Below are positions 21,313-27,033 of a DNA stretch of 56,382 nt, one piece after another. Under the pieces are notes generated by a model. It searched no databases. It was not told where the DNA came from and saw nothing but the letters and a program-made list of their open reading frames with translations. A program made the position numbers and the translations under genes. Source of the DNA: a bacterium (lineage in GTDB: Bacteria > Sysuimicrobiota > Sysuimicrobiia > Sysuimicrobiales > Kaftiobacteriaceae). Each line of letters opens with the position of its first letter. Position 1 is the stretch's first letter. The DNA is taken from the NCBI GenBank assembly GCA_035763845.1, contig DASUAK010000022.1, positions 1 through 56,382 of the forward strand, in the 5' to 3' direction.

Positions 21313-22032
21313 ATGCGCCGCTTCTTCGCCCCGGAAGGCGAGCGCGAGGGATGGATCACCCTCCGCGGCCGTGAAGCGCACCACCTGGCGGTGGTGCTGC
21401 GTCTGCGGCCGGGGGAGTCGGTGATCGCCGTCGACGCGGCCGGCCGCGAGCATGTCGTCCGCCTCACCGCCGTGGGCCCGGAGGAGGCGCGGGGCGAGGT
21501 GCTCGAGACCCGGCCGGGGACGGCGGTCGCGGTCGACGTCGTCCTCGTCCAGGGCGTGCCCAAGGGTTCGAAGATGGACGACATCGTCCGAATGGGCACC
21601 GAGCTCGGCATCGCCGAGTTCATCCCCGTGCTGACGAAGCGCACCGTGGCGGAGGGCCGCGGGCGTGCGGAGCGCTGGCGGCGCATCGCGGTCGAGGCGG
21701 CGAAGCAGAGCCGCCGGGCCGGCGTGCCGGAGGTGCTCGACCCGATGCCGTTCGCATCCGCCCTGGATCATCTGGCCGGCGCGGATCTCATCCTGCTGCT
21801 GTGGGAGGGCGAGCGGACGCGGTCGCTGGGGGACGTCCTGCGGGACGCCGCCCCCCGCCGGGTGGCCGTGCTTGTCGGTCCCGAAGGGGGATTCGACGAG
21901 GCCGAGGTGCGTGAGGCGGCCGGCCGGGGCGCCGTGCCCGTCACCCTGGGTCCGCTGATCCTCCGGACGGAGACCGCGGGGATGGCCGCCGCCGCGATGG
22001 TACTTTACGAACTGACCCTCCGGCGCGTATAA
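21313..22032 (+). CDS. rsmE: 16S rRNA (uracil1498-N3)-methyltransferase
   Basis: MRRFFAPE... and VLVGPEGGFDEAEV, the RsmE family signature. Conserved position after prmA. Confidence 0.93.
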   Translation: MRRFFAPEGEREGWITLRGREAHHLAVVLRLRPGESVIAVDAAGREHVVRLTAVGPEEARGEVLETRPGTAVAVDVVLVQGVPKGSKMDDIVRMGTELGIAEFIPVLTKRTVAEGRGRAERWRRIAVEAAKQSRRAGVPEVLDPMPFASALDHLAGADLILLLWEGERTRSLGDVLRDAAPRRVAVLVGPEGGFDEAEVREAAGRGAVPVTLGPLILRTETAGMAAAAMVLYELTLRRV

Positions 22033-22033
22033 T
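22004..22033 (+). promoter_or_regulatory. Candidate promoter of the carA leader
   Basis: TTTACG (22004-22009), 18-nt spacer, perfect TATAAT (22028-22033). The rsmE stop TAA (22030-22032) lies inside the -10 box. Confidence 0.45.
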
Positions 22034-22088
22034 CCGCTGAGAACCGTACGACACGTTCGCGACCATTAACGGTACCCCGGGAGGGACC

Positions 22089-22154
22089 ATGGCGCGCGCA
22101 GGCCGGCCGTCCTCATCGCACGGAGCCCGCATCCCCGGGCTCCGTTTTTCATGA
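22089..22154 (+). CDS. Candidate 21-codon leader peptide (uORF) of carA
   Basis: GGAGG (22080-22084), 4 nt, then ATG 22089. Encodes [21 protein letters not shown]. Its TGA (22152-22154) overlaps the carA ATG (ATGA). carA has no SD of its own. Confidence 0.35.
   Translation: MARAGRPSSSHGARIPGLRFS
22121..22149 (+). terminator. Intrinsic terminator or attenuator abutting the carA start codon
   Basis: CGGAGCCCG (22121-22129) pairs with CGGGCTCCG (22136-22144) around a 6-nt loop. Followed by TTTTT (22145-22149), and the carA ATG is at 22151. Confidence 0.75.
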
Positions 22155-23186
22155 CCGCTTTCCTCGTGCTGGAAGACGGGGCCGTCTTCCCCGGCCGCCG
22201 CATCGGCGTCCCCGACGGCGGCGCCGGCGAGGTCGTCTTCACCACCAGCATGACCGGCTACCAGGAAGTCCTCAGCGACCCCAGCTACCGCGGCCAGATC
22301 GTGACGATGGCCTACCCGCTGATCGGCAACTACGGTTTCAGCGCGGAGGCCTGGGAGGCTGAGGGCCCGCACGTCGCGGGCTTCGTCGTCCGGCATGACC
22401 ACGCCGGGTTGGACGGCTTCCTCCGCGAGGCGGAGGTGAGCGGGCTGGCCGGCGTCGACACCCGGGCCCTCGTCCTGCACCTCCGCACGCACGGCCTGCG
22501 GCGCGGGGTGATCGCCGACAGCCCCGGCCCGGAGGCGGTCCGCCGTGCCGCGGCGGTCGTACCGCCCGGGATGCGGGACCTGGTCGGCGAGGTCTCCTGC
22601 CGGGAGACCCGGCGCCTGCCCGGCCCCGGCCCCCGGATCGCCCTGATCGACTGCGGGGTGAAGGCGGGGATCGTCCAGGCCCTTCGCCGCCGCGGCTGCG
22701 AGGTCGTCCTGGTGCCGCACGACGCGGCACCGGCGGCGGTGGAGGCCCTCGATCCGGCAGGCGTCCTCGTCTCGAACGGTCCGGGCGACCCCGCGGTGCT
22801 GGCTTCCACGATCGCGACCGTGCGCGCTCTGGTGGAGCGCGTGCCGCTGATGGGCATCTGCCTGGGCCACCAGCTCCTCGCCCTGGCCCTGGGCGGCCGT
22901 ACATATAAGATGAAGTTCGGCCACCGCGGCAGCAACCAGCCGGTGCGGGAGGCATCGAACGGCCGTGTGATGATCACGACCCAGAACCATGGCTACGCGG
23001 TGGACCCGGCGCTCCCCCCGGACGTCGAGATCACCCATCTGAACCTGAACGACCACACCGTGGAGGGGCTCCGTCACCGCGAGCTCCCCGCCTTCTCCGT
23101 GCAGTTCCATCCCGAAGGTCGCCCGGGTCCTGGCGACGCCGAGGAGCTGTACGACCGGTTCCTGGCGATGGCGGACGAGGGGACGC

Positions 23187-23203
<17 letters not shown>
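22151..23203 (+). CDS. carA: Carbamoyl-phosphate synthase small (glutaminase) subunit
   Basis: [19 protein letters not shown]..., and a GATase triad region with ICLGHQLL. Confidence 0.97.
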
Positions 23204-26354
<3,151 letters not shown>

Positions 26355-26464: not shown

Positions 26465-26956
26465 TTACAGATGGAACGCTCTCGCCGGTGCTGGAGGGAA
26501 GGTGCCTCCTTCGACCTCCCGGACCAGCTGCCGGAGGACGTCACGGGCACGGTCCGCCTGGTCCCGCGAGATGTGCTTCAGACGTTCGGCCTCTTCGAAC
26601 TCGTCCTCGTCGAGCACGATGACAGCGCCGTCGGGCTCGATCCACAGATCGAGGAAGAGATCGACGACGGGCTCGAGCGTGGCGGGATCGGCCCCCGTCC
26701 ACCGCACCGGCTCGAGCACGTCCACGTAGTAGCCGGTCCACGTGCCGTCGGGGCGGTACACGCGGCCGACGTCGTAGGGCCGGTCCTTGAACAGGAACCA
26801 GATCCCCCAGTACCCGCGGTCGAGGACCACCTCGCCGCGCCGGCGCAGCGGCTGCGACGGCGCGTACTCCACCGCCGACACGAGCAGGTCGTCCCCGGCC
26901 TCGAGCAGCAGCGATCGGAGTTCCGCACGCCGATCCGGCGGGCGGATGTAGGTCAC
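26465..26956 (-). CDS. DUF402 domain protein (nucleoside tri/diphosphatase-like)
   Basis: GYWGIWFLF...RVYRPDGTWTGYYVDV...DLFLDLWIEPDGAVIVLDEDEF is typical DUF402. GTG 26956 has GGGGAG 6 nt upstream; the longest ORF would start at ATG 27001 without an SD. Confidence 0.78.
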   Translation of the reverse strand: MTYIRPPDRRAELRSLLLEAGDDLLVSAVEYAPSQPLRRRGEVVLDRGYWGIWFLFKDRPYDVGRVYRPDGTWTGYYVDVLEPVRWTGADPATLEPVVDLFLDLWIEPDGAVIVLDEDEFEEAERLKHISRDQADRARDVLRQLVREVEGGTFPPAPARAFHL

Positions 26957-26994
26957 GGTGATCTCCCCTTTGACACGCCGGGACGGGATCAAGG

Positions 26995-27033
26995 GTTGCA
27001 TGTTTATTCATCACTTTGGTATGATTATTCGCA
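26995..27033. promoter_or_regulatory. Tandem ARG boxes (ArgR/AhrC operator)
   Basis: GTTGCATGTTTATTCATC (26995-27012) and TTGGTATGATTATTCGCA (27016-27033) each match TNTGAATWWWWATTCANW at 14 of 18 positions. They are separated by 3 bp and sit in the only AT-rich patch of the region. Confidence 0.6.
26996..27025 (+). promoter_or_regulatory. Candidate argC promoter
   Basis: TTGCAT (26996-27001), 18-nt spacer (the 15 nt before the TG extension plus TGG), extended -10 TGGTATGAT (27017-27025). Fully covered by the ARG boxes. Confidence 0.5.

Follow-up and report, generated by a model that had tools for sequence, protein, structure and literature searches.

A conserved hairpin over the start site of a short leader frame before carA in Sysuimicrobiota: a candidate pyrimidine-responsive attenuator

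The present work deals with the region directly upstream of carA, the gene for carbamoyl-phosphate synthetase's small subunit, on contig DASUAK010000022.1 (assembly GCA_035763845.1) of a bacterium from the uncultured phylum Sysuimicrobiota. The whole stretch of 56,382 nucleotides (nt) that was analyzed is referred to as the window, and the genome that contains it as G000. In front of carA a promoter is followed by a hairpin which encloses both the Shine-Dalgarno (SD) sequence and the start codon of a short leader frame, and this frame runs through an intrinsic terminator up to the carA start. Recurrence of this arrangement among relatives goes beyond chance, and on this comparative basis we regard the stretch as a real and conserved regulatory leader. 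With a probability of roughly 55%, it would act as a pyrimidine-responsive attenuator of the type proposed for Thermus, which is gated by PyrR, operated by the ribosome and translationally coupled to carA.

Architecture of the carA leader

Promoter P1 (22004 to 22033, forward strand; 10 of 12 consensus matches) consists of TTTACG (22004 to 22009), an 18-nt spacer and TATAAT (22028 to 22033). It lies within the 3' end of rsmE, with the stop codon TAA (22030 to 22032) inside the -10 element, and is kept within the genus of the window, though placed in coding sequence. P1 was the only sigma-70-like site between 19 and 29 kb, where 0.2 sites were expected from shuffled sequences, and transcription is predicted to start at about 22040.

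Covariance and folding both support a regulatory hairpin at 22058 to 22096 (forward strand), with a predicted energy of -16.7 kcal/mol. Its lower stem is CGCG(A)CCAU / AUGGCGCG with a UAAC bulge on the 5' side, its upper stem GGU(A)CCC / GGGACC, and its loop CGGGA. Inside this structure lie the SD sequence GGGAGGG (22079 to 22085; its GGAGG at 22080 to 22084) and the AUG (22089 to 22091) of the leader frame, a location which an earlier sequence-only reading of the same DNA had overlooked. The leader frame comprises 21 codons on the forward strand (22089 to 22154), from the ATG at 22089 to a TGA at 22152 to 22154.

Entirely within this frame lies the intrinsic terminator (22120 to 22149, forward strand), recognized by its stem and folding energy (-19.6 kcal/mol predicted). 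Its stem (22120 to 22129 / 22136 to 22145) has 10 bp, eight of them G-C, and a 6-nt loop; TTTT and a C follow and then the ATG of carA at 22151, so that the U run ends 1 nt before the start codon. The TGA of the leader frame overlaps this ATG as ATGA. For carA itself (22151 to 23203, forward strand; TIGR01368, 411 bits) the start at 22151 is consistent with the conserved N-terminus, and no GGAG-like sequence was found in the 20 nt before it. Promoter, SD-preceded frame, enclosed terminator, ATGA overlap and lack of an SD sequence for carA had all been described in the sequence-only reading and were confirmed, the stem being counted here as 10 bp. Inspection by eye also led us to reject a leaderless carA transcript with its start at 22151, since 22136 to 22146 contains no -10 element.

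Conservation and covariation of the hairpin

A comparison of the sequence preceding carA covered 30 relatives. A block of about 35 nt around the SD sequence and the ATG is nearly invariant among them (GCGACCATTAACGGTACCCCGGGAGGGACCATGG). The consensus lower stem reads (GCG)ACCAU / AUGGU(UGC), with UAA(C) bulged on the 5' side and CGGGA in the loop, while the upper stem differs by family: GGU(A)CCC/GGGACC in f1, CGAUCUC/GGGAUCG in f3 and GGCUCUC/GGGAGCY in f4. Over 45 distinct sequences 90% of the hairpin cells are paired, compared with 35-41% in slid controls. Six pairs of the hairpin show compensatory changes, and at columns 22-38 AU occurs 17 times, CG 10 times and GC seven times. The covariation score was reached by none of 500 shuffles. 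Because the 45-sequence alignment was fitted to the covariance model, it is biased towards the structure, but without a hairpin it would be hard to account for the outcome of the slid controls and for three kinds of Watson-Crick pair in one position.

Folding of the whole leader is not unusually stable (z = -1.16), and the structural signal is the hairpin rather than the global fold. Codons 2-3 of the leader frame (GUU GCC, GCG CGC or GUG CGC) provide the lower stem with its 3' strand, which is why the peptide start 'MVA/MAR/MVR' is conserved. Conservation and covariation had been named as a check by the sequence-only reading: the hairpin covaries and the terminator recurs, but the peptide of the short frame is not conserved.

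Distribution within the phylum

In Sysuimicrobiota (CSP1-3) the unit of hairpin and terminator recurs before carA in families f1-f4, f6 and f7. A scan with the exact core pattern over one genome per species (185,579 species) gave 41 matches, 39 of which are positioned 55-217 nt upstream of carA; the remaining two are chance matches in Firmicutes. All 39 carA-linked matches come from metagenome-assembled genomes of the CSP1-3 lineage, with record titles such as Candidatus Sysuimicrobiota, Sysuimicrobium, Tepidifontimicrobium, 'Armatimonadetes bacterium' and 'Bacillati bacterium ANGP1'. Metagenome contigs contributed 80 loci: 70 were matched to carA, one (L159) was assigned to carA by eye and one to pyrF, six were too short to judge and two were chance matches.

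A covariance model of the carA hairpin, here called R1, matches 22052 to 22102 in the window and detects one copy in 48 of 94 genomes of the phylum. Families f1-f4 are positive, f6 and f7 carry diverged versions, and R1 found no carA hairpin in any of the 34 f5 genomes. In G000 both the pattern search and R1 give a single copy. A scan of the leader against Rfam, with 4 kb and with 120 nt, returned no relevant family, and the same was true for two other loci (L019, L024).

Between genera the promoter spacing, the peptide, the frame and the distance to carA are variable. Every lineage has a promoter-like element 14-30 nt before the hairpin; those of the other families (TTGCAA/TTTACT-17-TACAAT/TAGACT) lie about 14-22 nt before it. 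Most leaders have a terminator, a G+C-rich stem-loop with a U run, which starts 27-32 nt after the leader AUG, at the same distance in f1, f3 and part of f4. For several f4 leaders and a few others a scripted terminator search found none.

Genus g5, like f5, is without the carA hairpin. Several genomes of f5 and g5 have no carA match at all, their best matches being other amidotransferases, which suggests a loss of carbamoyl-phosphate synthetase in these organisms.

A second copy at pyrF and the nature of the signal

In genus g17 the hairpin occurs a second time, with R1 scores of 49 and 46 bits (G034 and G071). These copies (L103 4552-4603, minus strand, corresponding to G034:C151:17051-17102, and L104 1976-2027, minus strand, in G071:C46) have their own TATAAT/TATACT promoter, and pyrF (NF001273, 262 bits) starts at the AUG inside the hairpin. 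No terminator was found at the pyrF copies. The same arrangement is present on the metagenome contig L117, and the pyrF copy was observed only in g17 and on this contig. The hairpin is thus sited in the 5' leaders of pyrimidine genes, that is carA in all motif-bearing lineages and pyrF in g17. Since pyrF has no role in arginine synthesis or in the supply of carbamoyl phosphate, and its start site is the second hairpin copy, the signal appears to be related to pyrimidines and not to arginine. The sensed signal, which the sequence-only reading had left unspecified, is very probably pyrimidine in view of the PyrR-loop architecture described below and of the pyrF copy.

Arginine control, where present, seems to be a separate module because in g3, g4, f3, f4, f6 and f7 a promoter with ArgR-type boxes (TTGCATnTTTATKCA ... 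GTATAATTATGCA) stands between the terminator and carA. The genus of the window lacks this promoter before carA. In the window a promoter of the ArgR-box type belongs to argC (TGCATGTTTATTCA at 26997 to 27010; TTGCATGTTTATTCATCACTTTGGTATGATTATTCGC within 26995 to 27030), and the lineage-specific ArgR half-site occurs at the argC promoter only. The ARG-box consensus gave no match in the window with up to three mismatches. In G036 carA is preceded by the ArgR-box promoter only.

PyrR and its canonical binding loops

PyrR is encoded in 38 of 41 relatives and also in G000, at C80:6579-7100 (NF003549, 227 bits). The top phosphoribosyltransferase match of G000 was dismissed as pyrR, as it turned out to be hpt. 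The N- and C-terminal basic motifs of PyrR are intact in f1, f3, f4 and f7; in f3 these are RMAHEIVERN and VDRGHRELPIRPDYVGKN, which reportedly hold the RNA-binding residues. As side observations, PyrR of f3 reads VGIxRRGV where f1, f4 and f7 have VGIxTRG, and it carries a longer insert after RDD. Five genomes (G003, G015, G019, G021 and G026) each contain two PyrR-family genes above the family cut-off, possibly paralogues or assembly contamination.

Canonical PyrR loops of the phylum show a lower stem CCUUU/AAAGG, a bulge AAG/AAC, an upper stem CCGGUC/GGCCGG and a loop CNGNGA. One near-canonical representative stands in the pyrBC leader of G000 (C261:2187-2304, corresponding to L039 1440-1700, minus strand), where RF00515, the Rfam family of the PyrR attenuation known from Bacillus subtilis, scores 36 bits against a gathering score of 54. 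The promoter TTGACG-18-TAGAGT is followed by UCCUUU-AAC-CCGGUC-CGGAGA-GACCGG-AAAGGA, the 3' strand of which doubles as SD sequence. A GTG frame starts 7 nt past the loop and crosses the terminator, and its TGA overlaps the ATGATG of pyrB. Such a frame is present in all seven canonical PyrR leaders of f1. The pyrB gene also has a GGAGG of its own.

The carA hairpin largely shares the layout of these loops: both show a 5-bp lower stem, a 5' bulge of UAA or AAG, an upper stem of 6-7 bp and a loop ending in GA-GG. The diverged carA hairpins of f6 and f7 even carry canonical CNGNGA hexaloops (CGGUGA and CAGCGA). A second covariance model, R2, was built from canonical PyrR loops only and run unfiltered over 88 kb of carA loci. 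Its top match in these 88 kb was the f4 carA hairpin of L030 (14.4 bits, E 0.19), aligned end to end with a single deletion in the loop, and L028 ranked sixth; f4 carA hairpins were aligned end to end at 10-14 bits. The sequence-only reading had seen no PyrR-type motif in the leader. This holds in so far as RF00515 gives no match, but the SD sequence and the ATG lie in a conserved hairpin of PyrR-loop architecture that has a second copy at pyrF.

Several observations weigh against PyrR as the partner of the carA hairpin. RF00515 gives no match in the leaders even at E<=10 (4 kb, 120 nt, L019 and L024), R2 does not find the hairpin of the window, and R1 conversely does not find the canonical PyrR loops. 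In f1, f3 and f4 the loop is not CNGNGA but the pentaloop CGGGA, one base short of it, or CCGGGA with an A.G mismatch. A PyrR loop would not require a core as invariant as this one, although part of the invariance is explained by the SD sequence and the AUG. Furthermore, with -17 to -20 kcal/mol at 37 C the hairpin is predicted to be stable unaided and might block ribosomes already without any factor, the default state then being 'off'. Ribosome entry in the 'on' state could possibly take place by co-transcriptional access to the loop-exposed GGGA or at the temperature of high-temperature growth. The carA hairpin is hence at most a candidate member of the PyrR-loop family, and from the sequence comparisons a PyrR mechanism appears most likely.

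The foremost alternative is a riboswitch that works independently of PyrR, in which the hairpin itself binds a molecule of the pyrimidine pathway, such as uridine monophosphate (UMP), uridine triphosphate (UTP), cytidine triphosphate (CTP), phosphoribosyl pyrophosphate (PRPP) or carbamoyl phosphate, and thereby closes the SD sequence and the AUG, with the downstream logic unchanged. We consider it improbable, though worth keeping in mind. The motif belongs to no Rfam family and is not recognized by PyrR models, and its core CCGGGAGGGA is near-invariant across families while the canonical PyrR loops of the same genomes vary freely at the N positions. An unrelated precedent from beta-proteobacteria is the 'carA motif' of Polynucleobacter, an orphan riboswitch candidate with an extended hairpin immediately before carA and a supposed role in gating translation (PMC8632094); it differs in sequence and phylum and has neither a terminator nor a short frame. 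However, a binding pocket would find little space in a simple hairpin of about 40 nt with a single bulge, and the SD sequence and AUG alone explain much of the invariance. The architecture, the hexaloops of f6 and f7 and the parallel device at pyrBC all point to PyrR, and if the carA hairpin is discounted, no RNA target has been detected for the PyrR of f3: among six f3 genomes no canonical PyrR loop was found, and the R2 matches there are spurious, the best of them lying in coding sequence upstream of proS. A very small new aptamer class confined to Sysuimicrobiota, attenuating carA and controlling translation of pyrF with PyrR uninvolved, would be the most novel form of this alternative and is likewise improbable.

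Proposed mechanism and the role of the ribosome

According to the PyrR-gated attenuator favoured here, transcription would start from P1 at about 22040 and the first 55 nt or so would fold into the hairpin at 22058 to 22096, which holds the SD sequence and the AUG. With plentiful pyrimidines the hairpin would be kept shut, most likely by PyrR together with UMP or UTP; ribosomes could then not load, the terminator at 22120 to 22149 would fold behind the polymerase and carAB would not be transcribed. When pyrimidines are scarce the hairpin would be free, and a ribosome starting at the AUG at 22089 would trail the polymerase and cover the 5' arm of the terminator, so that termination is prevented. 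At the UGA overlapping the carA AUG this ribosome would halt and then pass on to carA, for which no separate ribosome-binding site exists. The sequences show the anatomy, the conserved and covarying hairpin with its link to carA and pyrF, a frame open up to each identified terminator, an encoded PyrR and the parallel device at pyrBC; what we infer in this scheme is PyrR as the factor, the sense of the response and the part played by the ribosome as antiterminator.

For the last of these, the course of the leader frame is instructive. In none of the 37 leaders with an identified terminator does the frame end more than 1 nt ahead of the stem, while the other two reading frames do so in about 11 of 74 cases; these leaders come from relatives and are not independent, which makes the count suggestive and not a proof. 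The frame ends in the terminator loop in L004, right on the first stem bases in L009, L011 and L074, and in ATGA at the carA start in L001-L003. In genera g2 and g7 and in L007 it has no stop at all and is fused in frame to carA. The ATGA overlap and the absence of an SD sequence before carA point to translational coupling, an idea strengthened by these fusions and by the ATGA ends of L001-L003. Two proposals of the sequence-only reading have thus gained ground: that carAB transcripts must pass a conditional terminator, with the translated short frame as the likely antiterminator (it is open to the stem in 37 of 37 leaders), and that carA is coupled to translation of this frame, as the in-frame carA fusions of sister genera also suggest.

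Alternative folds engaged the 5' arm of the terminator inconsistently, with 0-8 nt, and yielded no consistent RNA antiterminator, so that the ribosome is the best candidate; folding alone, however, does not prove that none exists. In some f3 leaders (for example L025, L021, L052 and L062) GUGCGCC and the palindrome CGAUCG, both part of the hairpin's 3' half, occur again in the linker ahead of the terminator, and this repeat permits an alternative helix of -22 to -27 kcal/mol. The CGAUCG/GCGC repeat was set aside as a hairpin-linker antiterminator, as it barely touches the terminator arm.

A ribosome that prevents termination would also be central to a kinetic attenuator. In pyrBI of Escherichia coli (leader pyrL), UTP is sensed via polymerase pausing at U tracts, and there is no regulator hairpin on the SD sequence. 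Transferred to carA, low UTP would slow the polymerase so that the ribosome catches up, the hairpin merely setting the loading rate or serving as a pause. The carA leader does resemble pyrBI: the short frame extends across the terminator up to the gene start, the ribosome would suppress termination, and the distance from AUG to terminator is constant. U tracts are absent here, however. Between the AUG and the terminator no U-rich pause tract was found in any lineage, the 20-nt linkers being G+C-rich, and the hairpin serves pyrF without any terminator, which marks the hairpin itself as the control element. We therefore regard kinetic sensing as doubtful, and the pyrBI model, to which the sequence-only reading had likened the leader, is not supported in its pure form.

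Still less can be said for arginine sensing, which the sequence-only reading had offered as its second option and in which stalling at the four Arg codons of the leader, notably R14, would mask the terminator. Four Arg codons among 21 and the vicinity of carAB to the argCJB cluster would fit. Apart from the first three residues, however, neither the peptide sequence nor its length, its frame or its Arg codons are conserved, and some leaders have no Arg codon before the terminator at all, for example L016, which reads MVAQSSCVHPEPAVSGSSF. The frame of g2 and g7 continues into carA, RNA pairing and not the peptide determines codons 2-3, the motif occurs at pyrF as well, and arginine control uses ArgR boxes elsewhere. 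The leader shows no conserved Arg run, no stop before the terminator and no 2:3 structure as in attenuators of the trp/his type. We reject the arginine reading of the leader. A likeness of GRPS within the peptide to the fungal arginine attenuator peptide is put down to chance, since the peptide is not conserved.

Equally remote is an absence of regulation, with the terminator merely ending the hrcA-dnaJ-prmA-rsmE operon 88 nt after rsmE (a neighbour also in f1, f4, f6 and f7) and carA expressed by leakage, as the unit is preceded in every lineage by a promoter-like element of its own, leaves no room for a carA promoter after the terminator, lies downstream of no rsmE match in the fetched f3 and g2 loci (contig ends limiting some flanks) and contains a hairpin under strong selection.

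Comparison with known systems

The closest counterpart is the pyr leader of Thermus ZO5, for which the ribosome has reportedly been proposed as the antiterminator, with PyrR blocking its loading. Both leaders have a promoter and a short frame whose ribosome-binding site coincides with the site for the regulator; this frame contains a terminator and ends at the start of the first gene. In Thermus the first gene is pyrR, here it is carA; the hairpin described here is noncanonical, also holds the AUG and belongs to another phylum, and sister genera have an ArgR promoter behind the terminator.

For Mycobacterium smegmatis a PyrR-dependent repression of translation by a PyrR-type hairpin over the ribosome-binding site is said to operate. 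The pyrF copies of g17 are alike, with the hairpin on the start site and no terminator; the copy in the window adds the terminator and the relay frame. PyrR attenuation of the type reported for B. subtilis agrees in the succession of lower stem, A-rich 5' bulge, upper stem, G/A-rich loop and terminator, in the pyrimidine genes concerned and in the presence of PyrR. It differs in that no RNA antiterminator was found here, that RF00515 does not score and that the loop here is one base shorter.

E. coli carAB is transcribed from tandem promoters, P1 under pyrimidine and P2 under ArgR control, as far as the account of Charlier et al. (1988) given in PMC8632094 goes. In g3, g4, f3, f4, f6 and f7 an attenuated promoter is likewise followed by an ArgR-box promoter, giving a two-input logic for a single synthetase. 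E. coli P1, in contrast, relies on reiterative transcription and DNA-binding proteins, not on an RNA hairpin with terminator, and the genus of the window is without an equivalent of P2.

Genomic context

In the window carA is preceded by murJ, hrcA, dnaJ, prmA and rsmE. The large-subunit gene carB (23187 to 26354, forward strand; NF003671, 1407 bits) begins within the end of carA and is followed by a gap of about 700 nt and then by argC, argJ and argB. Most of this gap is filled by a frame of 178 amino acids on the minus strand (26465 to 27001) that diverges from argC and gives a weak FomD/DUF402-like match of 32 bits, far below the cut-off. G000 contains a single carA, its other matches being unrelated amidotransferase domains, so that carAB must feed both the arginine and the pyrimidine pathway.

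Side observations concern the annotation of carA. Leaders without a stop and in frame with carA were noted at L008, L012, L014, L016-L018, L057 and L007. Initiation at the leader AUG of these loci would give a CarA with an N-terminal extension of about 20 residues that is encoded by the terminator. The GTG or ATG starts annotated just after the U run may thus not be the sole carA starts.

Implications

The carA hairpin adds an RNA motif that is spread throughout an uncultured phylum and not contained in Rfam, and is known from about 50 genomes (R1: 48 of 94) and from no fewer than 71 copies in metagenomes. One module appears in four uses: on the start codon of pyrF alone, with terminator and relay frame at carA, in gene fusions in g2 and g7, and stacked with an ArgR promoter. 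The ArgR-stacked layout, which is that of most other lineages, would arrive at the same two-input control as E. coli carAB in another way. For genome annotation, the leader AUG may be the true carA start in some genera. If PyrR binds the carA hairpin, the range of recognized sites would widen to a shorter loop with SD sequence and AUG both inside the site, and the hairpin would account for the target of PyrR in f3, where no canonical site was found.

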